Shown: positions 15,973 through 31,107, counted from the stretch's first letter. The stretch: DNA of 32,000 nt from Candidatus Brocadia sp. (GCA_021650915.1 CP091279.1:2940001-2972000), one strand, 5' to 3'. Numbers and translations: made by a program. Notes: generated by a model not told the origin, from the letters alone.

Positions 15973-17706
15973 ATGAAAACGCTGGGAATCCATATCGGCC
16001 ACGACAGTGGCAGCTCCTTAATAATTGACGGGCAAATTATCGCAGACGTATCGGAAGAGCGATTTGTCCGGCTAAAACATTATGCAGGGCTGCCGGTACA
16101 TTCCATAAACTTCTGTCTTGCTGCGGGAAAGATCTCCTTTGACGAACTGGATTTCATTGCAATATCGGGTGAAATCGCAGACCTGAAGCTGAAAACCCTC
16201 CTGAATCTATCCGACGAACAATTTGCTCACATCGTCGAGCAGAACCTGCCGCACCGATCCATCGGCAGAAAAGTAAAAGGCCTCCTGAGGAACAAAATCG
16301 TATATCAGGAATCTCCTCCGCTATATCTGAGATTTTTTAACCTTGCACCGAAGACGAAAGTAATTAAGGTCGATCATCATGTGGCTCACGCAGCTTCGGC
16401 ATACTATACCTCAGGGTATCAGGATTGTCTGATCATTACCTGCGACGGGGTCGGAGACGGGACGTCCCTGGCCGTCTGGAATGGCACTGGCGGGGTGATA
16501 AAGGAAATAAGGCGATACGACACCGCGGGTTCTTTCGGGTGGTTCTATAGCCTGGTAACTGAGGCACTGGGATGGTGGGTAGGTGACGGAGAAGGGAAAA
16601 CCATGGGTCTTGCGCCCTATGGTGACAGAAAGACGGTCACTAACAAAGAAATTCTTGCCCGGTACCTGCCGTGTTATCAAGAGGGAGAGCTCGTTCGGGG
16701 GATCGATTTTGGCGCCGTTAAATATTTTAAAGAATTTGATGCCTTTCATTGGCATTTTCCTGACGCACGGAAGATACAAAAGGCGGTTGAGGATTACGGA
16801 CCGGAACATGTAGCGGCGGAAGCCCAGTATTTATTGGAAGAATCGCTGTTGCAGTTTATCAGGCACTGGGTAATAAAAGAACAGGCAAAAAACCTGGCGA
16901 CTGCAGGCGGGGTATTTTTAAACGTAAAATTGAATCAGAAAATCCTTGAGGATACGCTGGTAGAAAATTATTACATCTTCCCGAATGCGGGTGACGCTGG
17001 CCTTGCATTGGGGGCTGCCTTCTCGGTATCCCAACATTTTTCCAGAGAAGGTGTTGCTCAAAGGATTGACCATATGTATTGGGGACCCCAGTATGGCAAC
17101 GATGAAATTGAAGCTCTTCTGAAAGAAAGAAATCTACCGTACCGGAAGGCGGATAATGTTGCGAAAGAGGCGGCAAGGGCGTTGGCTGACCAGAAGATCG
17201 TCGGGTGGTTTCAGGGAAGGATGGAGTCGGGCCCCCGGGCTTTAGGTGGCAGATCCATTTTATTTGACCCGGGAAAGCCGGAAAATAAAGATATCATCAA
17301 CAAGCGGGTTAAGTTCCGGGAGCCTTTCCGGCCTTTTTGCCCTTCCCTCATGGAAGAATATGCCCATGAATATCTTTCCACTTCGCATAAAGACCGGTAT
17401 ATGATTACCGCCTGTACGGTAAAGGATGAGAAAAGGAAGATTATCCCGGCGGTAACGCACGTCGACGGGACCTGCAGGCCGCAATTCATTTCACGGCAGA
17501 TCAATAAACGGTTTTGGGAACTGCTTGACGCCTTTCGCCAGTACACGGGTGTGCCGGTAATCCTGAATACTTCCTTTAACATCAAGGGGGAACCGATTGT
17601 GTGCAGTCCAAGGGATGCCATAAAATGCTTTTTCGATACGGGTTTGGACGCGCTCTGTATAGGGGACTTTGTTGTGACGAAGCAGCAATCCTTCAACCGT
17701 CCGTGA
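15973..17706 (+). CDS. Carbamoyltransferase (NodU/CmcH family)
   Basis: 577 aa. LGIHIGHDSGSSLIIDGQIIADVSEERFVRLKH, DHHVAHAASAYYTSG, GRMESGPRALGGRSIL and LNTSFNIKGEPIV are canonical NodU/CmcH blocks. Confidence 0.9.
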   Translation: MKTLGIHIGHDSGSSLIIDGQIIADVSEERFVRLKHYAGLPVHSINFCLAAGKISFDELDFIAISGEIADLKLKTLLNLSDEQFAHIVEQNLPHRSIGRKVKGLLRNKIVYQESPPLYLRFFNLAPKTKVIKVDHHVAHAASAYYTSGYQDCLIITCDGVGDGTSLAVWNGTGGVIKEIRRYDTAGSFGWFYSLVTEALGWWVGDGEGKTMGLAPYGDRKTVTNKEILARYLPCYQEGELVRGIDFGAVKYFKEFDAFHWHFPDARKIQKAVEDYGPEHVAAEAQYLLEESLLQFIRHWVIKEQAKNLATAGGVFLNVKLNQKILEDTLVENYYIFPNAGDAGLALGAAFSVSQHFSREGVAQRIDHMYWGPQYGNDEIEALLKERNLPYRKADNVAKEAARALADQKIVGWFQGRMESGPRALGGRSILFDPGKPENKDIINKRVKFREPFRPFCPSLMEEYAHEYLSTSHKDRYMITACTVKDEKRKIIPAVTHVDGTCRPQFISRQINKRFWELLDAFRQYTGVPVILNTSFNIKGEPIVCSPRDAIKCFFDTGLDALCIGDFVVTKQQSFNRP

Positions 17707-17751
17707 TCAGGAATTACCTTCTGCCGGCAGACTGCCGAAATTCATGGCATC

Positions 17752-19260
17752 ATGACCTCAGAAATCTATAAAAAAATTGGCGACAATTCGATGTATAATC
17801 TCATCCGCAGGCTTGTCGCACTTCCTATAGGATTGGTTCTGCCCCCGATAACGATTCAATATCTTGGGGTCGAGGGTTATGGTATCTGGGTCTTGATACA
17901 AACCCTCATCACCTATACCTCTCTTATGGACATGGGTTTCAGTCCGGCCATTACAAAGTATACGGCAGAATATGATGCACACAAGGATCACTTTAAAATA
18001 GTCCGGGTCTTTAATACCGTACTTGTCGTGTATATCTTCTTGTGCCTTATCGTGTTTGTTATCGTATATCTGGGCAAAGGGCTGATTATCAATTTTCTTA
18101 TCGGCCCCACGAAGATACCGAAAGAAACTATTTCCTTCGTATTGATAATTTCGTCTTTGGTCTTTTGTTGTAATATGGTGTTTAGCGCCTATCTTTCATT
18201 CCTGAATGGTTTGCAAAGGATGGGCATCACCAACAAGATCGGCAGTATCTCATCGATAAGCAATTGTCTCTTCTCGATCGTATTTTTATGTGTTGGCGGC
18301 GGACTGAAAAGTCTTGCCTTTGCAGGGGGTATTTCTGGCATACTGAGCGCTGTTATGTATCTGCGTGCCTGCAAAAAAATTGCCCCCTATCTTACCTTTA
18401 ATCCTTTTCTTTTCCGTATGAAAACGATAAAAGAGGTTTGGGGGTTTAGCAGTTATGGCGCTATGGGCAATCTGGTGGCGATGATACATTTTCAATCAGA
18501 CAAACTGATGATAAGCTATTTTCTTGGTGTAAGCAGCCTGGCCTTGTATGACGTTGCACATCGATTGGTTTTTTTCGTCTGGGGTCTGTCTGGTTCCTTC
18601 ATTACTCCCATTATGCCTGCAATCTCTCATGTCCACGCAAAATACGGCGTCGAGAAATCAAAAGAAGTTTTTCAGACCATTTTTTCCTATACGGCGCTCA
18701 TGGTTTGTCCCTTATTTTTCTTTGTTCCTGTCTTTGCAGACACCTTACTCCTTATCTGGTTAGGCGCCGGTTATGAAAACACAATTTCTGTTCTCAGGAT
18801 TTTGTCTTTGGCCTACTTATTCAATATCCTTTCCGGCCCTGGCGCATCAGTTCTGACCGGTATGGGGTTCTATAAGATTCCCTTTTACGGGGGAGTAATT
18901 ACCGCGGTTATTACCCTTCTGTTGTGTCCGGCGCTTATCATAAAATTTGGCATTTTCGGGAGCGCAACGGGAATCATGACGGCTTATGGAATCGGGGTTT
19001 TTTATCTCTTTCTTCAACTCCAAAAGGTCTTTGATTCTTTTTCAACCGCGCGCATTTTCTATCATTCATTACTCTTTCCCGCAGGAATGAGCATCGCTAT
19101 TTTTCTTGTAACAAACACCTTCATAACCTATTTCGTTCTGAACAAATATTTTGCATTCACCCTTGCTTCTCTGTCTCTTTTCATCGCATACGGTCTGATA
19201 CTTTTTAAAGACGGGAGATATCGTGCCGTATGGAAATCTCTTGCTGCTCTTCGATTATAA
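17752..19260 (+). CDS. Polysaccharide/oligosaccharide flippase (MOP/Wzx-like)
   Basis: 502 aa and highly hydrophobic, with many predicted membrane-spanning segments. The N-terminal LIRRLVALPIGLVLPPITIQYLGVEGYGIW pattern is typical of Wzx/polysaccharide biosynthesis proteins. Confidence 0.75.
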   Translation: MTSEIYKKIGDNSMYNLIRRLVALPIGLVLPPITIQYLGVEGYGIWVLIQTLITYTSLMDMGFSPAITKYTAEYDAHKDHFKIVRVFNTVLVVYIFLCLIVFVIVYLGKGLIINFLIGPTKIPKETISFVLIISSLVFCCNMVFSAYLSFLNGLQRMGITNKIGSISSISNCLFSIVFLCVGGGLKSLAFAGGISGILSAVMYLRACKKIAPYLTFNPFLFRMKTIKEVWGFSSYGAMGNLVAMIHFQSDKLMISYFLGVSSLALYDVAHRLVFFVWGLSGSFITPIMPAISHVHAKYGVEKSKEVFQTIFSYTALMVCPLFFFVPVFADTLLLIWLGAGYENTISVLRILSLAYLFNILSGPGASVLTGMGFYKIPFYGGVITAVITLLLCPALIIKFGIFGSATGIMTAYGIGVFYLFLQLQKVFDSFSTARIFYHSLLFPAGMSIAIFLVTNTFITYFVLNKYFAFTLASLSLFIAYGLILFKDGRYRAVWKSLAALRL

Positions 19261-19287
19261 GATTACGGTTCAATATGAGGGAAAAAC

Positions 19288-20232
19288 ATGCACAAAGAAA
19301 AAGTCCTCATTATTAAGCTCGGATATTCAGAAACCCTGGATGGCGAGATCGGGAAGATAACGAGCCTGGGAGACGTGCTCAGAAGCACCGTATTACTGCA
19401 TCTTTACAAAAATGCCCATGTTACCTGGCTGGTGGACGAGAAGGCATTTCCCCTGCTCAAAGGAAATCCCTTTATTCGCAGGATCCTCTCTTACGACCTT
19501 TCTTCTGTGCTCCAATTGCAGTCGGAACGATTTGATACCGTCATTAATCTTGAAAAGGTGCCGGGGTTGTGCGCCTTTTCGGATTCTCTGAATGCCTGGC
19601 GTCGATATGGTTTCCGGTTTGATCCGGAAAATGGGGTCGCGCTTGCCTACGATGGCTCTCAGCATGTTTTAGAGATCTGTATGGACCCAGAATATAAGAA
19701 AAAGACACGGAAATTCTGGGAGGAAACCCTGTTTGAGATGGTAGGGGCAAAATGGCAAGGTGAAGGTTGTATCCTGGGATACCAAACGAAGTCCAGCACG
19801 GCATTTGATATAGGCTTTAATTATGATGTAGGGAAAAAATGGCCGAACAAGGCATGGCCTATGGAATATTGGAAAGAACTGGAACGTCTTATCGGAAATA
19901 AGTACACCGTCTCCTGGCAGCAAGGCTTGAAAAACATTGAAGAATATTTTGAGTGGATCAGTTCCTGTAATCTTTTCATAACCAATGACAGCCTAGGGTT
20001 GCACATTGCCGGCGCTCTCAACAAAAAGATCATTGCGCTTTTCGGGCCTACCATGGCTTCCGAAATTTATGTGCCGAATGGCATCAAATTGCTGCCGACC
20101 ATTGATTACCCTTGCATACCTTGCTTAAGTCCGCGGTGTAAGCAAAGCACCTTGTGTATGCATTATATAGAACCGAACGTAGTTTATGATATGATAGAAA
20201 AAGTTGTTACGGGTTCCGTATCGCCAGCATGA
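19288..20232 (+). CDS. Glycosyltransferase family 9 (heptosyltransferase-like)
   Basis: 314 aa. VLIIKLGYSETLDGEIGKITSLGDVLRSTVLLHLY..VTWLV and the C-terminal ITNDSLGLHIAGALNKKIIALFGPT are GT9 hallmarks. Confidence 0.8.
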   Translation: MHKEKVLIIKLGYSETLDGEIGKITSLGDVLRSTVLLHLYKNAHVTWLVDEKAFPLLKGNPFIRRILSYDLSSVLQLQSERFDTVINLEKVPGLCAFSDSLNAWRRYGFRFDPENGVALAYDGSQHVLEICMDPEYKKKTRKFWEETLFEMVGAKWQGEGCILGYQTKSSTAFDIGFNYDVGKKWPNKAWPMEYWKELERLIGNKYTVSWQQGLKNIEEYFEWISSCNLFITNDSLGLHIAGALNKKIIALFGPTMASEIYVPNGIKLLPTIDYPCIPCLSPRCKQSTLCMHYIEPNVVYDMIEKVVTGSVSPA

Positions 20233-21818
20233 ATAAGAAGACGATCATACTCATTTCACCTCCGCCAATCACGACAGACTGGGAACCCAAAAAAGTACTC
20301 AGTGGAAGCCCCGGCGTTAGAATGGGACTTCTGTCCATAGGCAGTGTCCTGAGTCAGCACGGTTACTCCGTAAAAATACTGGATGGTATCCTGGGCAAGG
20401 TGGATTTGGCTTCTGAGTTACATCAGATACGTCCCCAGGAAACGTTATTTGTGGGAATCTCCTCGATGACAGCCCAATTGCCCTCTGCGGTAAAGGCGGC
20501 AACGATTATCCGGGAACAACATCCGTCGTTACCGATTATTTGGGGTGGAGTTCATGCAACTCTTTTTCCTGAAGAAACGTGCTCAGATAGTTTAGCCGAC
20601 ATCGTGGTCATCGGCGAGGGCGAGTATACTTGCCTGGAATTGACAGAAGCCCTTTCAGGGATAAGAGACCTTCATTCTATTAAAGGTATCGTGTATAAAA
20701 ACGGCGACGGGAAGACCATTTTTACCGGAAACAGGAGTCATCACGATTTAAACGCATTGCCCTTTCCAAAGTATGAACTTTTTCATTTAGACGACTATTT
20801 ATATCGTGCTATCATTGACAGAGAGGATATTAAAAACAGAAAATTTGGTAAAATGTTAAGCATTCATTCCGGTATGGGATGCCCGTACCAATGTACTTTT
20901 TGCATTAATACCACGGTTTATCGCGACGGGAAGTATTACACCAGGAGCCCCTATAGAGGCAAATCCGCCGTCAGGCTTCTTGATGAAATTGAGGTTTTAC
21001 TGAAGAAATACAACGTAGATTTTATCGATTTTATCGATGAAAATTTCCTTGTGGATAAAAGCCGTTTTTTTCAATTCCTGGATGGCATAGAAGAACGCCG
21101 GCTTACGTTTACCTGGTTTGCAGGTTCACGGGCTAATTATTTTAACCCGGGGTATTTAACCCATGACGTTATTGCACGGGCATCTGCCTTAGGGTGTGTT
21201 ATGATGGGAATTGGCGCCGAATCCGGCTCCCAGCGTATCCTGGATTTTCTGAAAAAGGGCATTACCGTTGAACAGATAGAGTATGCGGCAAGCGCGCTCA
21301 ATAAGCACCGGATTGTAAGCGAGTTTTCTTTTATGATTGGCCTTCCGCATGAGACGCCGGACGATATGTTAAAAACGATCCGCTTCGTTAAAAAACTGAG
21401 AACCATTGGGCCTTATGTTGGAACCCAGTCACCCCAGCTTTATCGACCCATACCAGGAGGAGAACTCTATGATGAATGCGTGAAGCTTGGTTTTGCCGCT
21501 CCGAAAGGCATTCGGGAATGGACGTCAGAAAAGTTACAGATATCCGGCTATCTGCATTTAGATAAACTGCCGTGGATTAACAGAGACAATAAGACGATAG
21601 TAATCATACGGTATGTTACGGGCATACTTTCCACCATGAAATTCAGGTGGTGGCTTATCGATAAAACGGGCAGTTTCTTTCTTAAAAATTTCCTGTTACA
21701 TGTGGTAAATATGGTATTCCTGCTACGGGAACGCATGGATTTCTGGAAGTTTCCGGTAGAATATACCTGTTTTGAGAGGCTTCAAAGGTTCAAAAAATAT
21801 TACCACCGGGTTAGGTGA
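20229..21818 (+). CDS. B12-binding-domain radical SAM protein (class B-like)
   Basis: 529 aa. The N-terminal Rossmann-like cobalamin-binding-type region has GLLSIGSVLSQHGYSVKILD..IIWGGVHATLFPEE. The radical SAM cluster motif is GMGCPYQCTFC. ATGA start/stop overlap with the GT9 gene. Confidence 0.85.
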   Translation: MNKKTIILISPPPITTDWEPKKVLSGSPGVRMGLLSIGSVLSQHGYSVKILDGILGKVDLASELHQIRPQETLFVGISSMTAQLPSAVKAATIIREQHPSLPIIWGGVHATLFPEETCSDSLADIVVIGEGEYTCLELTEALSGIRDLHSIKGIVYKNGDGKTIFTGNRSHHDLNALPFPKYELFHLDDYLYRAIIDREDIKNRKFGKMLSIHSGMGCPYQCTFCINTTVYRDGKYYTRSPYRGKSAVRLLDEIEVLLKKYNVDFIDFIDENFLVDKSRFFQFLDGIEERRLTFTWFAGSRANYFNPGYLTHDVIARASALGCVMMGIGAESGSQRILDFLKKGITVEQIEYAASALNKHRIVSEFSFMIGLPHETPDDMLKTIRFVKKLRTIGPYVGTQSPQLYRPIPGGELYDECVKLGFAAPKGIREWTSEKLQISGYLHLDKLPWINRDNKTIVIIRYVTGILSTMKFRWWLIDKTGSFFLKNFLLHVVNMVFLLRERMDFWKFPVEYTCFERLQRFKKYYHRVR

Positions 21819-21845
21819 GTCATAAAAGATTCGAGTTTTCGAAAG

Positions 21846-23243
21846 ATGAAAGGCGGTATGCTGAAAAGTTTGTTTCCGGAAAAAGAAGTTAATCAGGAGT
21901 TATCAGAAATACGAAAAACCGCTCCCCGGTTCTTTGAACTCCTGGAAGAAAAGATCGAAGGTACCAGATATCTTATATTCAAAAAGACGGCAAGGCAACT
22001 CCTGAGAAAAATGCTCGCGCTGGGAATAATGGGATGTTTAAAAGGCCTTTCAAACAAGGGCATTATCAGGGCGATAAATCGTCCTTCCGGGAAAAAGAGG
22101 ATCCTTTTCATTGCCGGATTACCCACGTTTAATCTTGCCGGGATAAGTGTCTGTCTGAGAAAAACCGGAGAATTTGAGACGGTACTTCTGACAGAGAATC
22201 CCTGGCTCGTCGGTTTTTTTCAGCGCTCTTTTGATAGGGTCTATGTCTTTAATTCGTATGCGGATGTTGCACAGATCCTCATGGCATCAAGACCGGATCT
22301 TATTCATATGCAGGGATCACTTCGGTATTACTTTTTAGGTGTTATGGCAAAGTGTCTGGGAAGAACGAACACCGTTATCGGATTTAATGACATTCCTTCC
22401 TTAACGGAGGTGCCGGAGGAAGACCGTAAAGAATTATGGGGCATCTCCCATGATGCTCAGTTGGACTATTTTTCAGAAGAATTTCTTTTTCAAAGGGCAG
22501 ACGGGATTATTCTTACAATGAATACCCTTGCAGCGGGGAATGCCTTACGCCTTCGCTATAAATCAACAAGCCCCTTACTTGAATTTCCTACGTATGTATG
22601 TGATGAGTTCTGCCGTGAGGAAGAAAAATACTCCCGGCACGACGGGAAGATCCATCTCGTATACGGCGGCATCATTGTCCCGTCTGACAAACCACGGGAA
22701 CTCTTCGGAGATAATCAATTTCTTGCGCTTGCAAAAAAACTTCTTCATCAGGGACTCTGCTTTCATCTCTATCTTTCTCCCCATTTTTCACCCTTTCAGA
22801 TCAAAAAATTATATCAGGATTATATTCAATTCGCCGCAGAAGCGCGTAATTTCAGCTTTAAGCAAGGACTTCCCCACGATGAGGCAATAAAAGAATTTTC
22901 ACGATACGATTTTGCGGCCATGATCAGTATCTTTGATGGAGTAAAATTAAATACGTTTCATTGGGAAACGGCAATGCCAAGTAAGTTTTTTACCTATTTA
23001 TCAGCAGGGTTGCCGGTTATTGTGAGTAAAGAGCATGGTAATATTTCTGCCCTTGTAAGAAAATATGGATGTGGTATTGTTGTTGATCAAAAAGATTTAG
23101 ATAAGATATCGGATATTATCAAACGCTGCGATTATGAAGAATTAAAAATCAATGTCAAACGAGCCAGAGAGGAACTTTCAATAAAAAACCATATCGGACG
23201 GCTCATTGAGTTCTATGAAAGAGTGTGCTCCGGAAATGGATAA
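21846..23243 (+). CDS. GT-B-fold glycosyltransferase-like protein, paralog A
   Basis: 465 aa. The C-terminal PSKFFTYLSAGLPVIVSKEHGNISALVRKYGCGIVV resembles GT4/GT1 sugar-donor domains. It is clearly paralogous to 27913-29277 (shared blocks SGKK(R/K)IL, ETxLLxExPWL, DGKIHLVYGG, EFSRYDF). Confidence 0.6.
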   Translation: MKGGMLKSLFPEKEVNQELSEIRKTAPRFFELLEEKIEGTRYLIFKKTARQLLRKMLALGIMGCLKGLSNKGIIRAINRPSGKKRILFIAGLPTFNLAGISVCLRKTGEFETVLLTENPWLVGFFQRSFDRVYVFNSYADVAQILMASRPDLIHMQGSLRYYFLGVMAKCLGRTNTVIGFNDIPSLTEVPEEDRKELWGISHDAQLDYFSEEFLFQRADGIILTMNTLAAGNALRLRYKSTSPLLEFPTYVCDEFCREEEKYSRHDGKIHLVYGGIIVPSDKPRELFGDNQFLALAKKLLHQGLCFHLYLSPHFSPFQIKKLYQDYIQFAAEARNFSFKQGLPHDEAIKEFSRYDFAAMISIFDGVKLNTFHWETAMPSKFFTYLSAGLPVIVSKEHGNISALVRKYGCGIVVDQKDLDKISDIIKRCDYEELKINVKRAREELSIKNHIGRLIEFYERVCSGNG

Positions 23244-24303
23244 ATATCGCATAGACAGCCATAAATTGATTTATCATGTGCAGAGGGTGCACGATTGGTT
23301 AGAAGGTAAAAATGTCTACCCCATCTATGCCGAAATATCGCCATCGGGAACTTGTAACCACCGATGCACGTATTGTGCCTTGGATTTTATGGAATATCAG
23401 CCGCGGTTTTTAGAGAAAGACCTGCTGAAGGAAAGGCTGTCTGAGATGGCATTGCTCGGTTTAAAGAGCGTCATGTATGCTGGAGAAGGCGAGCCGCTTC
23501 TGCACAAAGATATGGGAGAAATAATCCGTCATACACGAAACGCGGGGATTGACGTTGCCCTGACAACAAACGGGGTATGTTTCAAAAAAGATCTGATAGG
23601 GCGCACGCTTGAAAATATTACCTGGATAAAAGTAAGCATTAATGGTGGGACAAAAGAAACCTATGCCAAAATTCATCAAACAAAACCGGATCACTTTGAC
23701 CAGATAATAGAGAATATGTCTTATGCGGCAACATTACGACACGACAAGGGATACCGATGTGCCCTGGGTATGCAGCTCATCCTTTTGCCAGAAAACTGGA
23801 ATGAGGCAGAGCTTCTGGCCCGGCTGGCCAAAGAGATTGGTATGGATTATTTGGTTATAAAACCCTATTCACAGCATCCGTTGAGCAGGACAATGAAATA
23901 TAAAGATATAAAATATCGTGATTATCTTCACCTTGCCGACACATTACGCACTTTCAATGATCGCAACTTCAGCGTCATATTCCGCAGTAACACCATGAAA
24001 AAGTGGGACGAAGGACAGCGAAATTACCGGCAGTGCCTTGCCCTTCCTTTCTGGTCTTATATCGATGCCGGCGGGACTGTTTGGGGATGCAGCGCTTATC
24101 TCAGTGACGAACATTTTGCCTACGGCAACCTTTACAAAAATACGTTTCAAGAAATTTGGGAGGGCAAAAAAAGGCTTACGTCGCTTCGGTGGACATCAGA
24201 AAAGCTTGATATCAGTCAGTGCCGGATGAATTGCAGAATGGACGAAATCAATCGATATCTGTGGCAATTAAGGCATCCGCCCGAACACGTTAATTTTATC
24301 TGA
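23236..24303 (+). CDS. Radical SAM / SPASM-like protein, paralog A
   Basis: CNHRCTYC cluster motif, GEGEPLL, ALTTNG, and C-terminal Cys residues (CSAYL..CRMNCRMDE). It ends PPEHVNFI. I prefer ATG at 23236, where ATGGATAA overlaps the upstream stop, over the track start at 23206. Confidence 0.85.
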   Translation: MDKYRIDSHKLIYHVQRVHDWLEGKNVYPIYAEISPSGTCNHRCTYCALDFMEYQPRFLEKDLLKERLSEMALLGLKSVMYAGEGEPLLHKDMGEIIRHTRNAGIDVALTTNGVCFKKDLIGRTLENITWIKVSINGGTKETYAKIHQTKPDHFDQIIENMSYAATLRHDKGYRCALGMQLILLPENWNEAELLARLAKEIGMDYLVIKPYSQHPLSRTMKYKDIKYRDYLHLADTLRTFNDRNFSVIFRSNTMKKWDEGQRNYRQCLALPFWSYIDAGGTVWGCSAYLSDEHFAYGNLYKNTFQEIWEGKKRLTSLRWTSEKLDISQCRMNCRMDEINRYLWQLRHPPEHVNFI

Positions 24304-24331: not shown

Positions 24332-25153
24332 ATGGTCAATGATCGGTTATCCAAAAAGGCAAATCAAATACGCAGGGATTTAATAGAGATTGCCATTCAA
24401 AATGGAGCTGGGCATATTGCACCCTCGCTTTCCTGTGTTGATATCCTGGTGGCGCTGTATTACCGCATAATGAAACTTCCGCCTTGTTCGTCGTGGGAAG
24501 AAAGAGATCGTCTCGTATTTTCCAAAGCACACGGATGTTATGGTCTCTATTCAATACTGGCTGACAAAGGATTTATTCAACGTCGGGACTGGAAGAATTT
24601 CTATCAGGGAAGTTTTTTGTCAGGATGCCTGGAACGTTGCGTGGAAAATGGCCTGGAAGCAAGTTGCGGTTCGCTCGGACATGGGCTGCCAATGGCTGTG
24701 GGTATTGCCTTTGGGGCACAATTACAAAAGAAGAGATACCGCGTATATTGTATCGTTGGCGATGGCGAAATGCAGGAAGGATCCAATTGGGAAGCAATTC
24801 AATTTGCCGCTAAATACAAGCTGTCAAATCTAACGGTAATCATCGATCACAATACCCTGCAAGCGATGGATTTTTTGAAAAATGTCCTAACGATGGAAGA
24901 AAGGAGGGATGATTTGCAAAGGAAAATGAAGGCTTTTGGATTTGAGACAAAAACCTGCAGCGGGCATAACATAAAAGACATCTCTTCTCTTATTGAAAAA
25001 TGGATCAAAAACCAGAAAAATCTCGTTGCGCCCCAGGTATTAATCGCAAGGACAACTAAGGGATATGGGTTAAAATGCATGGAAAATGTACCAAAATTTC
25101 ATTTCCGTATACCGACAGAGGATGAATTAAAAATGGGAAACCGTTATGAATGA
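24332..25153 (+). CDS. Transketolase N-terminal (ThDP pyrophosphate-binding) subunit
   Basis: 273 aa. GHIAPSLSCVDILVALYY, GSLGHGLPMAVGIAFG and the ThDP motif VGDGEMQEGSNWEA. Confidence 0.85.
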   Translation: MVNDRLSKKANQIRRDLIEIAIQNGAGHIAPSLSCVDILVALYYRIMKLPPCSSWEERDRLVFSKAHGCYGLYSILADKGFIQRRDWKNFYQGSFLSGCLERCVENGLEASCGSLGHGLPMAVGIAFGAQLQKKRYRVYCIVGDGEMQEGSNWEAIQFAAKYKLSNLTVIIDHNTLQAMDFLKNVLTMEERRDDLQRKMKAFGFETKTCSGHNIKDISSLIEKWIKNQKNLVAPQVLIARTTKGYGLKCMENVPKFHFRIPTEDELKMGNRYE

Positions 25154-25643
25154 CAGCATTAACAATTGCCGAAAGGATATCGTGAACAAAATTATTCCTT
25201 ATGCAAGAAGGGACAAGAGGATTGTTTTGCTTGTCTGCGATATGGGATTCGGAGTTACTGATAAATTTCAGGAAGAATTTCCTGACAAAATTTTTAATAT
25301 GGGTATGATGGAACAGGGGACGGTTGGTATTGCCGCGGGCATGGCAATGACCGGTTTTATACCCATTGTCTATTCCATCGTGAATTTCCTTGTTTTTCGC
25401 GCTATTGAACAGATACGCAATGATGTGGTACTGCAAAATCTGAATGTCAAATTTATTGCCACCGGGGTAAACAATTATTTCAGGTTTTTGGGACCTTCCC
25501 ACTGCTGCGGGGAAGACGACAAAAAAATCATGCGCCTGATCAACATGAAGGTATTTGATCCCTATGAGGGGAAAAAGGTCGAGATTGATACGTTGATAAA
25601 TGATTGGATTACCGATCCGGGGCCGGGATACTTCAGGGTGTAA
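25146..25643 (+). CDS. Transketolase pyrimidine-binding subunit, unusually short (165 aa)
   Basis: FNMGMMEQGTVGIAAGMAMTGFIPIVYS (Pyr domain with the conserved Glu). The ORF ends soon after the Pyr domain, with no room for the usual C-terminal TKC domain. ATGAATGA overlap with the upstream subunit. Confidence 0.7.
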   Translation: MNDSINNCRKDIVNKIIPYARRDKRIVLLVCDMGFGVTDKFQEEFPDKIFNMGMMEQGTVGIAAGMAMTGFIPIVYSIVNFLVFRAIEQIRNDVVLQNLNVKFIATGVNNYFRFLGPSHCCGEDDKKIMRLINMKVFDPYEGKKVEIDTLINDWITDPGPGYFRV

Positions 25644-25716: not shown

Positions 25717-26820
25717 ATGGGTGAATTGGTTCTTGACGGGCATAAGCTTGCCTGGCACAAAGACCGTGTCGATGCCTGGTTGCAGGGCGAACGGATTGCT
25801 CCGGTAACGATTGATTGTGCATTGACTCGATCCTGTACCTACCGGTGTGTCTATTGCTATGGGATGCTTCAGTCAAACGATATAAAGAGAATGACCCGGG
25901 ATGTCATATTCAGGTTTTTGGATGACGCAGCAGAAATTGGGGTAAAAGGTATCAGTTTTGTCAGTGATGGAGAAAGTACGTGTTCTCCTCATTTGTATGA
26001 TGCTATTCTCAGAGGCAGGCAAAACGGCCTGGATATGGCGTTAGGAACGAATGGATATCTGTTAAAAGAGGAACGATTAGAGGAGGCATTAGCGGCTTTA
26101 ACGTATCTTCGGTTCAATATTTCTGCGGCAGAAGCTGACCGATATACGGGAATACACGGATGCGAAGAAGGGTGTTATGGTAGGGTGATCAACGTAATAA
26201 AAGCATGCGTGAAAATAAAGAAAGAGAAAAATCTTGAGGTAACCCTTGGATTGCAGATGGTATTGTTGCCGGAATTTGCAGACCAGATTATACCGTTGGC
26301 AAAATTAGGAAGAGAACTTGGCGTTGATTATCTTGTCATTAAACATTGCAGTGATGACGAAAGGGGAAGTCTTGGCGTTGATTATTCAAAATATTATGAA
26401 TTGGCAGAGGTGCTGAAAAAAGCCGAAACCTATTCTGATGATAAATATCTGGTTAAGGCAAAATGGTCTAAGATTTTAAGCGGTGGAAAACGAAATTACA
26501 GCCGCTGCTACGGGCCGCCTTTTATCATGCAGTTTTCTGGTTCCGGGCTGGTAGCCCCGTGTGGTATGCTTTTCAACGAAAGATATAAAGAATACCATAT
26601 GGGAAATATTGCCGATACATCATTCAAAAAGATATGGCAGAGTGATCGTTATTGGGAGGTTGTCAATTTAATAGCTTCAGAAAAATTTGATGCCAGAACG
26701 ATGTGCGGCTCTCTCTGTTTGCAGCATAAGGTTAATGAATGTTTGTGGGCTTTAAGGCATGAGAACGCCATCCTTACGAGGGAAGACGCTCGGCCTCCGA
26801 TGCATATAAATTTTATCTGA
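25717..26820 (+). CDS. Radical SAM / SPASM-like protein, paralog B
   Basis: CTYRCVYC motif. It shares with paralog A the blocks HKLxxHxxRVxxWLxG, (T/G)TNG, LGxQxxLLPE, G(M/V)DYLVIK, RNYxxC, FxxIW, LWxLRH and the ending PPxHxNFI. I prefer ATG at 25717 (GGGGTG Shine-Dalgarno-like motif upstream) over the track start at 25600. Confidence 0.85.
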   Translation: MGELVLDGHKLAWHKDRVDAWLQGERIAPVTIDCALTRSCTYRCVYCYGMLQSNDIKRMTRDVIFRFLDDAAEIGVKGISFVSDGESTCSPHLYDAILRGRQNGLDMALGTNGYLLKEERLEEALAALTYLRFNISAAEADRYTGIHGCEEGCYGRVINVIKACVKIKKEKNLEVTLGLQMVLLPEFADQIIPLAKLGRELGVDYLVIKHCSDDERGSLGVDYSKYYELAEVLKKAETYSDDKYLVKAKWSKILSGGKRNYSRCYGPPFIMQFSGSGLVAPCGMLFNERYKEYHMGNIADTSFKKIWQSDRYWEVVNLIASEKFDARTMCGSLCLQHKVNECLWALRHENAILTREDARPPMHINFI

Positions 26821-26876
26821 CGGGGTTACAAAGGAGTCAGGACGAAAAGCTGTTGTCCTATTTTGGATAAACGCCC

Positions 26877-27725
26877 ATGAAACCAATCGTTATTCCACAA
26901 ACGTATAATTATATTGCCACATTTTTATCCCTCACCTGCAATCTCAGGTGCAGCTATTGCATTAATTATTTCGAGGAAGGTAATTTTAATAAAAAGCAGA
27001 TCTCCGGCAAAGAATGGGTTGAAGGATTGAACAGGGTGGTTCCCAGAGAAGATCTCCCCCTTTCACTCCAGGGTGGAGAACCAAGCCTTCATAAGGACTT
27101 TATCTCTATCCTGAATCATATTAAACCGCAGTTAAATGTTGATATCCTGACGAATCTGCAGTTCGATGAAGACGAATTTATCCGTAAGGTAGACCCCAAC
27201 AGAATTAAAAGAAAATCTCCTTACGCCTCGATACGAGTCAGTTATCATCCTGCAACCATGAAACTTGAACCTCTGGTTAAAAAAGTCCTTACATTACAAA
27301 GGAACGGTTTTAGTGTCGGAATTTGGGGAGTAATGCACCCGGCACAAGAAGCGGAGATATTGAGGGCAAAGGAGTATTGCACTGCTTCAGGAATAGACTT
27401 TCGCACGAAGGAGTTTCTCGGTGAACATAACGGGAAGAGGTATGGTACCTACCGTTACGAAGGGGCATGTGATAAAAAATTTGCAAAAAAAGTCTTGTGT
27501 AAAACAACAGAACTTATTATCGGCAGCAGTGGCGACGTTTACCGGTGTCACAGTGATCTTTATGAGAACAGGAAGCCGATCGGGAATATCCTGGATGAAG
27601 ATTTTGAGATAGAAGATACCTTTCGTGAATGTAATGTCTTTGGACATTGCAATCCTTGTGATGTGAAAGTGAAGACAAACCGTTTCCAGGAATTCGGTCA
27701 TACTTCGGTGGAGATTATCTTTTAG
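26877..27725 (+). CDS. Radical SAM protein (small; third type)
   Basis: 282 aa. CNLRCSYC motif, LQGGEPSL, and a C-terminal Cys cluster (CHSDL..CNVFGHCNPCDV). Confidence 0.8.
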   Translation: MKPIVIPQTYNYIATFLSLTCNLRCSYCINYFEEGNFNKKQISGKEWVEGLNRVVPREDLPLSLQGGEPSLHKDFISILNHIKPQLNVDILTNLQFDEDEFIRKVDPNRIKRKSPYASIRVSYHPATMKLEPLVKKVLTLQRNGFSVGIWGVMHPAQEAEILRAKEYCTASGIDFRTKEFLGEHNGKRYGTYRYEGACDKKFAKKVLCKTTELIIGSSGDVYRCHSDLYENRKPIGNILDEDFEIEDTFRECNVFGHCNPCDVKVKTNRFQEFGHTSVEIIF

Positions 27726-27912: not shown

Positions 27913-29277
27913 ATGTCAATGGCAAATACGAATAGTATCAAAGAAAAATTCTCACCCATTCAAAAACTCAACAGCGAAGTGTATGACATCCTTGTTCATG
28001 ACAAACTCGAATTCAATCCCCTCGTACGGCTCAAAAAGAGTGCAAAACAATCCGTAAGAAGATACAAGGCCGGGGGATTAAAGGCGGTTTTTCATAACTC
28101 CCTTAAGCAGCTTATGAACAGAATAAACACCCCTTCCGGTAAAAAAAAGATACTGTATATCACGATCACCCCGTCCTTTAACCTGTTACGCCAAAGTATC
28201 TATATTCGTAAAAAGGAGGATTATGAAACGATTCTCCTCATGGAAAGTCCATGGTTGTTCAAACTTATGGAACAACACTTTGACGCTGTGTATATGTATG
28301 ATACCTATTATGAACTAGCCACTATCCTGAAAGAAGCAAAACCATTCATAATCCACGTACAAGGATCTATGCTGGGGTCCGATTTTTTGTGTATCCTTGC
28401 CAGACTGTTGAATGAAACAAAAGTAGTTTTTGAGTTTTTTGATGTACCAAGTCTTTGTATTGCAAAAGAAGATGGTATGCCTGTGTGGGGAAAGAAAAAT
28501 ACAGAGCTTGGTTTCTTTGCAGAACAATATGCCTGTGAAAACGCACATGGCATTATCTTAGGGTATTCTTATGAAGCCGCAAAAATCCTTAAAGAACGGT
28601 ACTGTGTAAAAGCCCCGGTTCTGGAATTCCATACTTACGTATGTAGCGAGTTTGTGTCAAAACAGAATACGACCAGGTATTCGGAGGAGGATGGAAAAAT
28701 TCATCTGGTGTACGGCGGGAATGTAGCGCCTTCCAATCTGCCGCAAAAGATATTCGCCGATGTTCAATTTCACGAATTGATAAAAGGAATCACAAAACAA
28801 GGCCTTTATTTTGACATATATGCGTCCCCCCATGTCAGTCCCGTAAAGTTTGAGTTATTTTTTTCTGATTATCTTGCCATCTCCCGAGAAAACAATCTTT
28901 TTAGGTTAAAAAAGGGGCTTTTCCCGGATACAGCGGCACATGAATTTTCCCGGTATGACTTTGGAATGATGGTTTATTTATTCAATCAGGGAACTTTTTT
29001 AAACGATGCCCTTCAAACGAGGTTGCCGGGAAAGTTCTTCTTATACCTGGAGGCAGGCCTCCCTATCGTAATAAGTGAAGAATTGGCGTATGTTGCAAAG
29101 ATCGTGAGAGAATATGAAATAGGCATTGTTGTACGCCAGGCAGAGATAGATAACCTCTCGAAAATAATTCCTGGCTACCATTATGAGCAGCTGAAAAATA
29201 ATGTCATTGCTGCAAGGAAGGAGCTTTCTATGGAAACTCATATTGAAAAACTTCTGAAATTTTATGAGAATTTATGA
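27913..29277 (+). CDS. GT-B-fold glycosyltransferase-like protein, paralog B
   Basis: Paralog of 21846-23243 along its whole length. PGKFFLYLEAGLPIVISEELAYVAKIVREYEIGIVV. The track starts at GTG 27877; ATG at 27913 gives an N-terminal length closer to paralog A. Confidence 0.6.
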   Translation: MSMANTNSIKEKFSPIQKLNSEVYDILVHDKLEFNPLVRLKKSAKQSVRRYKAGGLKAVFHNSLKQLMNRINTPSGKKKILYITITPSFNLLRQSIYIRKKEDYETILLMESPWLFKLMEQHFDAVYMYDTYYELATILKEAKPFIIHVQGSMLGSDFLCILARLLNETKVVFEFFDVPSLCIAKEDGMPVWGKKNTELGFFAEQYACENAHGIILGYSYEAAKILKERYCVKAPVLEFHTYVCSEFVSKQNTTRYSEEDGKIHLVYGGNVAPSNLPQKIFADVQFHELIKGITKQGLYFDIYASPHVSPVKFELFFSDYLAISRENNLFRLKKGLFPDTAAHEFSRYDFGMMVYLFNQGTFLNDALQTRLPGKFFLYLEAGLPIVISEELAYVAKIVREYEIGIVVRQAEIDNLSKIIPGYHYEQLKNNVIAARKELSMETHIEKLLKFYENL

Positions 29278-29439
29278 CTCAGAAAATAATGTTGGGAAAA
29301 TCTCCGTTGTCGTTCATCTGCTTCATTCTCCGCATGGCAGAAACCTCTTTTTTTCTATGGAGTATAACCGGCAAAATAGTTTATAATCAGCGCTATTGCA
29401 GATAGAAGCCAAGGTTCCATCATTTTCAGAAATGCGGAT

Positions 29440-31107
29440 ATGAATCAAAAAGAGAACGTAATAACAGATAAAATACTTTGGATACTCTTGCTTTTGGCTT
29501 GTGCAATACGCCTCTATATCTGGTATGTAACCCCGATAATCTCTACGGACGGCATCTCTTATATAAATACAGCAAAACATTTCGTAGCGGGAAACTTTTA
29601 CGAAGGATTAAAACACGCATACCATCCCTTGTATCCCCTGTTTATATCGGCACTCTCAGTTATGGGTATCGGATTTGAGACTGCAGGAAGGCTTGTTTCC
29701 TTATGTTTTGGCACACTTTCCGTAGCAGCGGTATATTTTTTTGGAAAAAAGATGTTTGACTTGAGGATAGCCGTTGTATCGGCAATTCTCCTTGCCTTCC
29801 ATCCTTATGCCGCGAGACTATCGGCCAATGTAAGGTGTGATGCGATGTATTTCTTTTTTTATCTGCTTGGATTTGGCCTGGGTTATTTAGCCCTTACTTT
29901 AAAGGAATCGTATCTCTTTTTCCTTGCTGGCATAGCAAGTGCATTTGCATATCTTACCAGACCCGAAGGAGTAGGTATCCTGCTCATAGTAAGCCTCTGG
30001 ATAGGTATCCAATTCATAACACGTGAGCGTTCTGCCTGGAGGAATTACCTGAAGAAATTCTGTCTACTGCTCGTTGGATTTTTTATCTTTTCAAGCCCGT
30101 ATTTATTATACCTGAGAGATTATACAAATTCCTGGACACTCACGCAAAAAAAGCAGATATCTGATATGAGCGGCATTACCGCTATGAGTGATATGGTGCA
30201 TAATTTCCAACAATGGAAAATTAATGAGGTGAATAACACACCATGGGATGATTTTTCCTATGATAAAGTGGTTCCTGAACGCGATGCTGGCAAACAAGGT
30301 CTTCATCCCGTCCACACGACAACCGTTAAGCATACATCAGGTACGAAATACTTCCAATCACTCTGTTCGGTCTTAAACGAATTTATTATTACTATCCATT
30401 ACCCATTCGTGATCTTTTTCATAATTGGCATTATGTACGTAATAAAAAATAAGAGAAAGAAAACGGTAAACTTCTATATCGCATCGTATCTGGTCCTTTT
30501 TTTATTGATATTGTATTTTCTGAAGTTAACGACTGGTTATGCTGGTCACCGGCATCTTTTAAATGTGATACTGATTACGCTCTTCTGGACGGGAATAGGA
30601 ATAAGCAATACCTATTCATGGCTCATAAAAAAGATACCACTATGGCAACCCGCACAAGCAGAGAATATTCTTTCCCGAAGCGGCATTATTTTTTTGTGTC
30701 TGATTGTCACTTTCTTTCTGCCAAAGACGTTAAAGTCTTTTAAATCCGAAGGCATTTACAAAGATGCAGGCCTATGGATCAAGACCTTTTACTCCAATGT
30801 TCCTGCGGTTCTCACAGACGATTCGATAATCACATTTTATGCAGGTGTTCAAAGGCTGAAGATACCAAAAAAGAATACGTACGAAGAAATCGTAGCATAT
30901 GCCAGGGCAAACAAAGTAGACCTTATTGCCGTAACAGATGATATTGTTGAGTATGATCAGGATTTCTTTTCAAAAATAAATCCCCATGATTTAAAAGAGC
31001 TGTATCGCGGAACGGCCAAAACGGAAAAGGTGGTTATCTATCAGGTTCTCCGTATAAATGAACAGCGAAGCAGTGCAAAACTTCATACCGATGAAAAAGA
31101 GGAATAG
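29440..31107 (+). CDS. GT-C-fold glycosyltransferase (ArnT/PMT, family 39/83-like) with C-terminal soluble domain
   Basis: 555 aa, multi-pass membrane protein. The N-terminal TDGISYINTAKHFVAGNF..YHPLYPLFISAL..GRLVSLCFGTLSVAAVYFFGKKMF..LLAFHPYAARLS fits the ArnT/PMT_2 pattern. Confidence 0.7.
   Translation: MNQKENVITDKILWILLLLACAIRLYIWYVTPIISTDGISYINTAKHFVAGNFYEGLKHAYHPLYPLFISALSVMGIGFETAGRLVSLCFGTLSVAAVYFFGKKMFDLRIAVVSAILLAFHPYAARLSANVRCDAMYFFFYLLGFGLGYLALTLKESYLFFLAGIASAFAYLTRPEGVGILLIVSLWIGIQFITRERSAWRNYLKKFCLLLVGFFIFSSPYLLYLRDYTNSWTLTQKKQISDMSGITAMSDMVHNFQQWKINEVNNTPWDDFSYDKVVPERDAGKQGLHPVHTTTVKHTSGTKYFQSLCSVLNEFIITIHYPFVIFFIIGIMYVIKNKRKKTVNFYIASYLVLFLLILYFLKLTTGYAGHRHLLNVILITLFWTGIGISNTYSWLIKKIPLWQPAQAENILSRSGIIFLCLIVTFFLPKTLKSFKSEGIYKDAGLWIKTFYSNVPAVLTDDSIITFYAGVQRLKIPKKNTYEEIVAYARANKVDLIAVTDDIVEYDQDFFSKINPHDLKELYRGTAKTEKVVIYQVLRINEQRSSAKLHTDEKEE

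Follow-up and report, generated by a model that had tools for sequence, protein, structure and literature searches.

The 32,000-nucleotide stretch of DNA studied here (the window; CP091279.1:2940001-2972000 of GCA_021650915.1) contains a cluster of glycan-related genes in which four radical S-adenosylmethionine (SAM) proteins are encoded together with a two-subunit thiamine diphosphate (ThDP) enzyme. The whole window is an exact match to the public contig SOEW01000017.1 of assembly GCA_029760155.1, identical copies are found in many sequencing runs, and the proteins of this contig are named Candidatus Brocadia fulgida, an anammox planctomycete, in public records. The cluster occupies positions 15973-31107, which are filled by twelve genes on the + strand according to our open reading frame (ORF) calls, Pfam, NCBIfam and independent public gene calls, all of which concur. 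An earlier note made from the sequence had counted thirteen genes; it named only twelve, and these are all present on the + strand where it had placed them:

15973..17706, + strand: NodU/CmcH-family O-carbamoyltransferase of 577 amino acids (aa), with Carbam_trans_N and Carbam_trans_C domains.
17752..19260, + strand: MOP/Wzx-like flippase, 502 aa, with about 12 transmembrane segments.
19288..20232, + strand: GT9-like (heptosyltransferase-family) glycosyltransferase, 314 aa, with a Glyco_transf_9 domain; forms a conserved pair with rSAM C.
20229..21818, + strand: B12-binding (class B) radical SAM protein (B12-rSAM), 529 aa, with B12-binding and Radical_SAM domains.
21858..23243, + strand: GT-B-like glycosyltransferase A, 461 aa, Gtf3_C-like.
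23236..24303, + strand: rSAM A, 355 aa, a radical SAM protein whose C-terminal domain is twitch/SPASM-like and predicted to bind one auxiliary cluster; part of the cassette core.
24332..25153, + strand: ThDP PP-domain subunit (TK-N), 273 aa, of the transketolase N-terminal type.
25146..25643, + strand: ThDP Pyr-domain-only subunit (TK-Pyr), 165 aa, with a Transket_pyr domain.
25717..26820, + strand: rSAM B, 367 aa, with Radical_SAM and SPASM domains; the highly conserved anchor of the cassette.
26877..27725, + strand: rSAM C, 282 aa, a small radical SAM protein with a cysteine-rich C-terminus; partner of the GT9-like gene.
27919..29277, + strand: GT-B-like glycosyltransferase B, 452 aa, with an alternative GTG start at 27877.
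29440..31107, + strand: GT-C glycosyltransferase, PMT_2/ArnT-like, 555 aa, with about 8 or more transmembrane segments.

The three overlapping junctions lie exactly where they had been reported. The ATGA at 20229 joins the start of the B12-rSAM gene to the stop of the GT9-like gene, ATGGATAA at 23236 joins the stop of the gene for GT-B-like A to the start of rSAM A, and ATGAATGA at 25146 joins the stop of TK-N to the start of TK-Pyr. All other junctions are gaps of 27-193 nucleotides (nt), with 73 nt ahead of rSAM B and 162-193 nt ahead of the last two genes. The start of rSAM B was set at 25717 and not at the first ATG of its ORF at 25600. Twelve co-directional genes with such junctions are ordinary operon behavior, and it is the recurrence of the core of the cluster in about 80 unrelated genomes that exceeds chance.

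We refer to this recurring core as the cassette. It consists of rSAM A, the two-subunit ThDP enzyme and rSAM B, plus the pair of GT9-like and rSAM C genes. For the species scan one genome per species was used and the best 80 of 283 rSAM B loci were compared; neighborhoods were derived from crude ORF calls in 83 loci, which were clustered and annotated through representatives, and the co-occurrence counts are minimum values. Thousands of database proteins are related to rSAM B, and identity is at least 75% for every one of the top 120 cluster representatives. Across the best 80 species of the 283 loci the identity is 70-89%, spanning more than 12 phyla. The hosts are Planctomycetota (Brocadia, Scalindua, Anammoxibacter, Phycisphaerae), Nitrospirota, Nitrospinota, Desulfobacterota/Thermodesulfobacteriota, Omnitrophota, Elusimicrobiota, Latescibacterota, Dehalococcoidia, Bacillota, Gammaproteobacteria, members of the candidate phyla radiation (CPR)/Patescibacteria and DPANN archaea. 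No cultured host is found among the best 80 genomes with rSAM B, all of which are metagenome-assembled genomes (MAGs) or single-amplified genomes. We also considered rSAM B as an "orphan" family and dropped this idea, as a 50%-clustered library (218 representatives at E <= 1e-30) contains an unbroken series of relatives, with identities between 57% and about 25%.

The gene order recurs as well. The 5' half of the related loci runs from a GSU2086-family gene through a small RfaE-domain-II-like nucleotidyltransferase and an HldE-like nucleotidyltransferase-kinase to a GmhA-like SIS isomerase, and the 3' half from rSAM A through the two-subunit ThDP enzyme and a GT2 glycosyltransferase of about 257 aa to rSAM B. 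The genes after rSAM B are variable and include a 600-700-aa multi-pass membrane protein (in some loci PMT_2), a pair of small membrane proteins, a B12-radical SAM protein, a short-chain dehydrogenase/reductase (SDR) and DegT. Near rSAM B we found rSAM A in 54 of the 83 loci, the PP or E1α subunit of the ThDP enzyme in 62/83, GT2 within 2.5 kb in 51/83, and the HldE-like nucleotidyltransferase-PfkB protein and the B12-radical SAM protein in 35/83 each. GT9 and rSAM C are present in 17/83 and 19/83, respectively, and they occur jointly in 16 loci, whereas 1 locus has GT9 without rSAM C and 3 loci have rSAM C without GT9. The four core proteins of Brocadia are 68-78% identical to those of a Nanoarchaeia MAG. 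Such a level of identity between domains of life far exceeds what is expected from vertical descent, which is why we consider the cassette to be mobile. In Kuenenia, the core is 80-90% identical and includes the GT2.

Some loci deserve separate mention. In the Kuenenia stuttgartiensis cluster (our loci L006-L008), toxin-antitoxin and intron genes break up the row of cassette genes; the inserted genes encode PIN, HEPN/nucleotidyltransferase, Uma2 and group II intron reverse-transcriptase proteins. Many of the cassette genes of L008 seem to be in fragments, which could reflect decay at the strain level or an error of assembly. About 30 of the 83 loci have, after rSAM B, a pair of membrane proteins of about 173-184 aa with 3-4 N-terminal transmembrane segments and a soluble C-terminal domain (for example L023:4020-5125, L026:13182-13706 and L039:12699-13817); the pair is absent from the window, has no Pfam or NCBIfam match, and may represent a flippase or a regulatory pair. 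A variant without rSAM B in two Deltaproteobacteria MAGs (L095/L096, 3 kb-20 kb) contains rSAM A, E1α, E1β, GT2, a B12-radical SAM protein, a protein of about 162 aa, GT9 and rSAM C. Back-to-back with it are genes for a PMT_2 GT-C, TPR proteins, a type IV pilin-like protein (N_methyl), PilS/PilR and PilC, and this neighborhood hints at the O-glycosylation of pilins or other proteins.

The arrangement had been described in the earlier note as unusual. The glycan setting stands, whereas the notion of a peculiarity of one genome does not, the core being widespread, highly conserved and evidently mobile. Full-text literature searches for the cassette or its context retrieved only context papers, none of which describes the cassette, and no curated NCBIfam model covers rSAM A, B or C. 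The cassette is an unreported variant among glycan loci with sugar-tailoring enzymes, and it is distinctive for its combined chemistries, its very strong conservation and its spread among bacteria and archaea that are uncultured anaerobes.

All four radical SAM proteins contain the CX3CX2C motif (residues 218-225 in B12-rSAM, 40-47 in rSAM A, 40-47 in rSAM B and 21-28 in rSAM C) and match PF04055 above its cutoff of 29.5 bits, with 55.5, 73.5, 52.1 and 32.4 bits, respectively. In the NCBIfam comparison none of the four reached the cutoff of a curated family, the best scores being 37-134 bits against cutoffs of 200-750. Membership in characterized families of cofactor maturases or of maturases for ribosomally synthesized and post-translationally modified peptides (RiPPs) had been set out beforehand as the result that would speak against a glycan role, and NCBIfam places none of the four proteins there.

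rSAM A and rSAM B are paralogs with 28% identity over their full length. rSAM A has a SPASM domain (PF13186; 32.7 bits, cutoff 21.5), and Cys40/44/47 and Cys267/285/329/333 are invariant in 36 homologs. Judged from the sequence, the four invariant C-terminal cysteines are enough for one auxiliary cluster. The best profile matches of rSAM A in the PDB are BlsE (1e-12), with MoaA and DesII nearly equal, followed by viperin and BtrN, all of which act on nucleotides or sugars. rSAM B contains a SPASM domain (33.2 bits), the motif CTYRCVYC at residues 40-47 and five C-terminal cysteines. Its AlphaFold model (pLDDT 79.6, pTM 0.83) has its best fold matches to DesII (E 2e-16, TM-score up to 0.67) and BlsE (TM-score 0.66/0.72), with SPASM peptide enzymes next. 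Against the NCBIfam models for these sugar enzymes, the two paralogs score 38-47 bits for DesII (cutoff 450) and 24-44 bits for BlsE (cutoff 400). By the profile of rSAM A and the modeled fold of rSAM B, the closest resemblance of the pair is to the sugar-acting BlsE and DesII, at the level of fold rather than of family membership.

rSAM C contains CNLRCSYC at residues 21-28 and six C-terminal cysteines; its PF13186 score of 19 bits is below the cutoff of 21.5, and its best curated family is STM4011 (36.8 bits against 200). The protein is 67-86% identical across phyla, and a fold search returned only generic SPASM/twitch matches (SkfB, anSME, SpeY, EpeE) with TM-scores of about 0.5. In B12-rSAM, PF02310 (61.6 bits, cutoff 32.1) covers residues 29-138 and is followed by PF04055 at residues 216-387, with CPYQCTFC as the cluster motif. 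The best curated families for this protein are BchE (134 bits against 481), HpnJ (132 against 578) and ApyD (129 against 750). B12-rSAM is lineage-restricted: identities of at least 78% are confined to the top 14 full-length matches, among which the sole named protein is from Brocadia sp., and from match P0485 down the identity is at most 46%.

The ThDP enzyme is made up of two subunits. The larger, TK-N, matches Transketolase_N (103.2 bits, cutoff 22) and DXP_synthase_N (67.6 bits), and its ThDP/Mg motif, GDGEMQEG...IIDHN, is intact. Its score against the transketolase equivalog (PRK05899.2-5) is 206 bits, below the cutoff of 488. For TK-Pyr, Transket_pyr is the sole Pfam match (63.3 bits) and dxs the best NCBIfam match (55.7 bits against a cutoff of 466). 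The second subunit had been labeled TK-C; the gene is real, but it has no Transketolase_C domain, as the protein ends at residue 165 after the Pyr domain, 73 nt ahead of rSAM B. Since the same Pyr-only form of 164-165 aa recurs in 18 related loci, we consider TK-Pyr to be a genuine short form and not the product of a frameshift.

In canonical transketolases the substrate is contacted by the histidine of GHP(D/E) in the PP domain and by the TH...GEDG..H block in the Pyr domain. In TK-N, GHPD is replaced by GCLE, and a cysteine is found at this histidine position in 19 of the 26 TK-type cassette homologs. TK-Pyr has lost the TH..GEDG residues and keeps GPSHC; THAGLTVGEDGASH is swapped for TGVNNYFRFLGPSH, with the last histidine alone retained, and the block looks DXS-like. 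The cofactor-activating glutamate is retained, as seen from the alignment of MGMMEQG with MGIAEQN of 6yaj.

The slot for the ThDP enzyme is filled in different ways in the other loci, about 18-20 of which combine TK_N with a short Pyr subunit, while about 37-38 have E1_dh (2e-80) and E1β. The E1β proteins carry both Transket_pyr and Transketolase_C, and in the full gene tables of L095/L096 no E2 or E3 gene was called beside E1α/E1β. In two loci from unrelated MAGs E1β is naturally fused to GT2, in a Nitrospirae MAG (L047:8235-9977) and a Patescibacteria MAG (L064:8154-9980); the fusion proteins, of 580 and 608 aa, both consist of Transket_pyr, a truncated Transketolase_C and a GT2 domain. Transketolase, DXS and E1 enzymes share a ThDP-bound two-carbon carbanion, which E1 and DXS draw from pyruvate. 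The suggestion in the earlier note that the ThDP enzyme installs a two-carbon branch has gained strength from the stand-alone E1α/E1β pairs in most homologous loci and from the two fusions of E1β to the neighboring GT2. Because TK and E1 types are interchanged and E1β is fused to GT2, a dedicated late transfer of a C2 unit is favored over a supply of sedoheptulose-7-phosphate. That the enzyme performs a late C2-branching step is nevertheless a tentative proposal, to which we give rather less than even credence.

The proteins encoded around the cassette bear out the view that this is a glycan locus, since they comprise a MOP flippase, a GT9-like protein, two GT-B-like proteins, a PMT_2 GT-C and a NodU/CmcH carbamoyltransferase. 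The carbamoyltransferase has both of its Pfam domains (Carbam_trans_N 155.6 bits, cutoff 24; Carbam_trans_C 234.9 bits, cutoff 27) and falls outside the NodU equivalog of NCBIfam (158.6 bits against 1000). It is lineage-specific and is found beside rSAM B in just one of about 80 other loci. The flippase matches Polysacc_synt_3 (3e-19), Polysacc_synt (3.5e-18) and MurJ (1.9e-9) in Pfam, scores 60.7 bits for WZX_like in NCBIfam (cutoff 300) and has 12 hydrophobic segments. The PF01075 match of the GT9-like protein (45.1 bits, cutoff 22) spans only 45 residues, while its N- and C-terminal parts align to the heptosyltransferase I/II models with 34-42 bits (cutoffs 135-185); the protein is 82% identical to its counterpart in Kuenenia and 66% to those in Deltaproteobacteria MAGs.

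The two GT-B-like proteins are paralogs with 41% identity. As genes they are secure, whereas their assignment to the GT-B fold is weak. GT-B-like A has faint matches to Glycos_transf_1 (2.5e-4) and Glyco_trans_4_4 (1.1e-3) and resembles the galactofuranosyltransferase PRK09814 (1.5e-7); GT-B-like B has no Pfam match in our own scan, and its PDB sequence search came back empty. A precomputed match to PF26337 (Gtf3_C) is available for both. The GT-C matches PMT_2 (42.7 bits, cutoff 26.1) and PMT (23.5 bits, cutoff 22.7), has 8 hydrophobic segments, and no similarity was detectable between it and the GT-C-like proteins encoded at other cassette loci. In other phyla, the cassette is accompanied neither by this GT-C nor by the GT-B-like pair, Wzx or the carbamoyltransferase. 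A tblastn search of the window with the cassette GT2s and with a 682-aa membrane protein of Kuenenia identified no homolog.

The cluster had been noted for its lack of nucleotide-sugar synthesis genes, and this absence is upheld; the sole nucleotidyltransferase in the window is GlgC-like and on the other strand. Most simply, the missing genes would be encoded elsewhere in the B. fulgida genome. Indications of the substrate come from the related loci. Here, the nucleotidyltransferase-PfkB protein matches HldE (151 bits) and contains both RfaE domains in reversed order, with the adenylyltransferase first and the PfkB kinase last. The SIS protein matches GmhA (105 bits), and a 322-aa protein is a member of the GSU2086 family (370 bits against a cutoff of 250). 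The heptose-activation genes are located directly 5' of the cassette in another Brocadia MAG and in a Scalindua MAG. These activation genes are non-canonical (for example L039:11150-12682, L016:3707-4195 and L047:2759-3727); in addition to the HldE-like protein with its reversed domains and the GSU2086-family protein, they include a second, stand-alone RfaE-domain-II-like nucleotidyltransferase. In Geobacter sulfurreducens, GSU2086 is flanked by hldE and gmhA and accompanied by gmhB and a GT2 (PMC5585712; PMC3495685). Measurements in Kuenenia have shown pools of both ADP-heptose and GDP-heptose (bioRxiv 10.64898/2026.04.20.719630), and oligo-heptose O-glycans have been described on its S-layer protein (bioRxiv 10.1101/2020.12.03.409086). 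Since HldE-like, GmhA-like and GSU2086-family genes directly precede the cassette in related loci, a heptose-type sugar appears to be the likeliest substrate.

With regard to export and the acceptor, the alignment of the cassette GT2 with the polyprenyl-phosphate glycosyltransferases ArnC, AglJ, PpgS and PgfS extends across the entire catalytic domain, and large multi-pass membrane or PMT_2 proteins accompany the cassette in related loci. The acceptor itself may be an S-layer protein, a pilin or lipopolysaccharide (LPS).

On balance, and with a confidence that is only a little above even, we favor the hypothesis that the cluster is a surface-glycoconjugate operon built around a mobile cassette, in which radical SAM chemistry and the ThDP-dependent addition of a C2 unit act on a heptose-type sugar that is then tailored further. 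Only the initial step of the scheme outlined below rests on measurement, made in Kuenenia and not in B. fulgida, and we infer steps 1-5. In the initial step (step 0), genes outside the window would produce an ADP-heptose-type nucleotide sugar. In step 1, the DesII/BlsE-like rSAM A, which is predicted to carry a single auxiliary Fe-S cluster, would abstract a hydrogen from the ring, and oxidation or elimination would leave a carbonyl on the nucleotide- or lipid-linked sugar. The ThDP enzyme could then add a two-carbon acyl-anion equivalent to this carbonyl, giving a C2-branched or chain-extended sugar (step 2). The use of a stand-alone E1α/E1β pair by most other genomes implies pyruvate as the source of the C2 unit.

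In step 3, rSAM B would carry out a second radical reaction, which might be a reduction, a rearrangement or an epimerization. The class B radical SAM protein may subsequently methylate the sugar or the glycan, and the NodU/CmcH enzyme may O-carbamoylate it (step 4). In the last stage, the GT9-like and the two GT-B-like transferases would assemble the glycan on a lipid carrier that the Wzx-like protein flips, and the PMT_2-type GT-C would transfer the sugar to Ser/Thr residues of a periplasmic protein of the S-layer or pilin type, or to LPS (step 5). The product may be C-methylated, branched and carbamoylated.

A more far-reaching hypothesis, which we regard as doubtful in its full extent, is that rSAM A, the ThDP enzyme, GT2 and rSAM B constitute an undescribed, oxygen-independent route from an ADP-heptose-type precursor to a C2-branched or C9 chain-extended sugar. 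Radical SAM enzymes would here replace the logic of the NAD-dependent 4,6-dehydratases, the route would have spread by horizontal transfer among anaerobic bacteria, CPR and DPANN, and its product would be a lipid-linked donor for the glycosylation of surface proteins or LPS by GT-C enzymes.

Several known systems resemble the cluster in part. Two-carbon branching of deoxysugars by ThDP enzymes is known from YerE (yersiniose) and from the E1α/β-like pairs AviB1/AviB2 (avilamycin) and AlmDI/DII (aldgarose), in which a pyruvate-derived C2 unit is added onto a keto-sugar. The similarity lies in the location of the ThDP enzyme in a sugar-tailoring cluster without E2/E3 partners and in the E1α/E1β pair of most homologous loci. 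The differences are that the enzyme in the window is transketolase/DXS-like with a Pyr-only small subunit, that the substrate of the cassette is likely a heptose-type sugar rather than a 4-keto-6-deoxyhexose, and that the hosts are strict anaerobes, including archaea, rather than actinomycete antibiotic producers or Yersinia. Furthermore, the window has no SDR 4,6-dehydratase, and the carbonyl would therefore need radical SAM chemistry. DesII, a TDP-4-amino-4,6-dideoxyglucose deaminase/dehydrogenase, and BlsE, a cytosylglucuronate decarboxylase, share the CX3CX2C core with rSAM A and B. Unlike these two enzymes, rSAM A and B form a paralogous pair that flanks the ThDP enzyme, with four (rSAM A, invariant) and five (rSAM B) C-terminal cysteines, in each case sufficient for one auxiliary cluster.

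The ADP-heptose pathway (GmhA, HldE, GmhB; WaaC/WaaF; GSU2084-2088 in Geobacter) is paralleled by the GT9-like gene in the window and by the activation genes before related cassettes, whereas the window contains no activation gene and the GT9-like protein scores 42 bits against the heptosyltransferase II cutoff of 135. The ArnC/ArnEF/ArnT and GtrA/B/C systems and PMT O-mannosylation are similar in that the cluster ends with a GT-C gene of the PMT_2 type, and in that related loci hold an ArnC/PpgS/AglJ-like GT2 next to rSAM B, multi-pass membrane proteins and the small membrane pair. However, the B. fulgida window lacks the GT2 and has a Wzx-type flippase instead, while a trio of GT2, small flippase and GT-C is present in many related loci. 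Among class B (cobalamin) radical SAM enzymes, GenK and Fom3 are methyltransferases that belong to sugar pathways. In the PDB sequence search with B12-rSAM, the diol dehydratase AprD4 ranked second (4.8e-7). These enzymes have in common with B12-rSAM the B12-binding and radical SAM domains; B12-rSAM differs in being lineage-restricted and outside the curated families, and its methylating activity is putative.

Several observations weigh against the scheme that we favor. The model leans on the GT2 and on the HldE/GmhA-like genes, all of which are missing from the B. fulgida locus itself. In the related loci, the HldE-like and GmhA-like proteins score under the equivalog cutoffs, and the sugar may for this reason not be a canonical heptose. 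The identity of rSAM A and B to DesII and BlsE is just 15-18%, and peptide-modifying SPASM enzymes score nearly as high. In an enrichment of Brocadia sapporoensis, heptose glycans were assigned to Ignavibacteria and not to Brocadia. Finally, the order of isomerase, rSAM A and ThDP enzyme is also compatible with an early action of the ThDP enzyme on a sugar phosphate.

This last point leads to an alternative that we consider unlikely and that nevertheless survives best, namely that the ThDP enzyme acts early and makes a ketose (phosphate) precursor, such as sedoheptulose-7-phosphate or an unusual or deoxy heptulose, which the GmhA/HldE-like enzymes isomerize and activate. The radical SAM proteins would then epimerize, dehydrogenate or deoxygenate the sugar, and no C2 branch would be formed. 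TK-N does match genuine split transketolases strongly, with 174 bits to 6yak, the ThDP genes are located just downstream of the SIS and HldE-like genes in the canonical order, and the S-layer glycans of Kuenenia have been reported with ordinary heptose masses only. However, the same slot is occupied by E1α/E1β in some 37-38 loci, and the reaction of such enzymes is the decarboxylation of 2-oxo acids, not a ketol transfer that yields ketose phosphates. The fusion of E1β to GT2 in two MAGs points to a late step, the ThDP enzyme is retained in loci without an HldE/GmhA-like gene within ±10 kb, and both subunits have departed from the transketolase pattern, with TH..GEDG missing from the short Pyr subunit and a cysteine in place of the conserved active-site histidine of TK-N.

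The hypothesis of a single surface-glycoconjugate operon also has to be weighed against mere adjacency, in which at least two independent co-directional units, for example a glycan operon and a separate radical SAM/ThDP operon, happen to be neighbors. The longer gaps before rSAM B and the last two genes could mark such a division, and the glycan genes of the window that are left out of the cassette in other phyla fit it equally well. Promoter-like matches are present inside the cluster, though they are no more common than in shuffled sequence. Terminator-like sites are about 2 standard deviations above shuffled sequence, and none is conspicuous in any intergenic gap. The promoter and terminator scan is therefore uninformative about the operon structure. 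What makes an accidental arrangement improbable in our view is that one of the three start/stop overlaps connects a GT-B-like gene directly to rSAM A, that no prominent intergenic terminator separates the genes, and that in more than 80 genomes the cassette is always found amid glycosyltransferase, flippase, nucleotide-sugar and GT-C genes of varying identity.

Automatic annotation names the SPASM/twitch radical SAM proteins MoaA, PqqE or "tungsten cofactor maturase", but it is highly improbable that they act in the maturation of peptides (RiPPs) or cofactors. These names reflect the best NCBIfam matches, to W_rSAM_matur, MoaA and StsB, and public annotations label the rSAM proteins MoaA or PqqE; the SPASM peptide maturases SuiB, anSME and SkfB are also among the fold matches. 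The scores are, however, far under the curated cutoffs, as for the best match of rSAM A/B to W_rSAM_matur with 77-78 bits against 380. No precursor-peptide or cofactor-pathway genes are found nearby, the synteny with sugar genes holds in every phylum examined, and the top structural matches of rSAM B and profile matches of rSAM A are sugar- or nucleotide-acting enzymes.

The synthesis of ladderanes is a well-known unsolved piece of radical chemistry in anammox bacteria. A role for the radical SAM proteins in this process or in hopanoid tailoring is strongly disfavored and the least probable of all: the host is an anammox bacterium, B12-rSAM weakly matches HpnJ (132 bits), HpnR and a "ladder" B12 family (86 bits) and rSAM A weakly matches HpnH (48 bits), but these scores are far under the cutoffs of 360-650 bits, neither acyl carrier protein (ACP) or Fab genes nor squalene-hopene cyclase or hpn genes are found in the window, the cassette is also common among archaea and non-anammox phyla, and the radical SAM genes proposed for ladderane synthesis adjoin fatty-acid synthesis (Fab/ACP) genes (PMC2649909; PMC13459092). 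On the grounds of the missing lipid genes, the spread of the cassette beyond anammox bacteria and the Fab/ACP neighborhood of the ladderane candidates, the link to ladderanes and hopanoids was rejected.

Returning to the preferred hypothesis of a surface-glycan cassette, it probably marks an undescribed modification of heptose-type sugars. To our knowledge, sugar-acting radical SAM enzymes are few and almost entirely from antibiotic pathways. Here, a radical SAM pair locked to a ThDP enzyme is located in ordinary surface-glycan loci across a large share of the uncultured anaerobes. If the hypothesis is correct, the cassette would represent a new class of tailored heptose-derived sugars, with branched or extended sugars being made without oxygen or NAD-dependent dehydratases. 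It would also provide a handle on the S-layer and extracellular polymeric substance glycans that govern granule formation in anammox wastewater reactors and on the cell-surface biology of organisms that are represented by metagenomes only, and it could be a source of new biocatalysts that form C-C bonds in carbohydrates. Moreover, the "MoaA/PqqE-like" annotation of thousands of database proteins would be turned into a testable hypothesis.

Two further features of the window relate to the cluster:

15882..15911, + strand: sigma-70 promoter-like match (10/12) in the 355-nt gap 5' of the first gene; a low-confidence, possible start of the operon.
1123-2409, - strand: the GlgC-like nucleotidyltransferase, the only one in the window, about 14 kb upstream of the cluster.

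An Rfam scan of the whole window identified no TPP, cobalamin or SAM riboswitch, nor any other RNA family. On the 5' side, a co-directional ORF of 197 aa (15024-15617, + strand) with a sub-threshold match to DUF4864 ends 355 nt before the cluster; it is kept in all copies of the contig and may or may not belong to the locus. On the opposite side, the cluster is bounded downstream by a convergent gene for a HEAT/PBS-lyase-repeat protein (31290-31958, - strand), which is truncated where the window ends and is 276-326 aa long in public gene calls.

Further upstream, positions 8371-10295 (+ strand) encode a GMT-wHTH protein (384 aa) and an overlapping DUF5131 protein (262 aa), a pair that matches the PADLOC candidate defense systems PDC-M30 (A 5e-26, B 2.5e-117) and PDC-M41B (7.9e-121). 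This PDC-M30-like pair is followed by an unannotated ORF of 391 aa (10749-11924) and, at 12452-13049 (+ strand), by a small ORF and a PIN-domain protein (129 aa, PF01850 2.3e-18) that resemble a VapBC-like toxin-antitoxin pair. The defense pair and the VapBC-like pair form a small accessory islet between Wood-Ljungdahl genes and the glycan cluster, with a NadB-like FAD gene (13283-14956) intervening nearby. The genes at 2531-7157 (- strand) encode MTHFR (316 aa), a DUF5981 protein corresponding to the MTHFR C-terminal domain (230 aa) and an HdrA-like flavoprotein fused to MvhD/FlpD (690 aa), which by their domains look like the methylene-tetrahydrofolate reductase module of the acetyl-CoA pathway. 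The GC content of this module is 0.47-0.53, compared to 0.38-0.48 in the glycan cluster.

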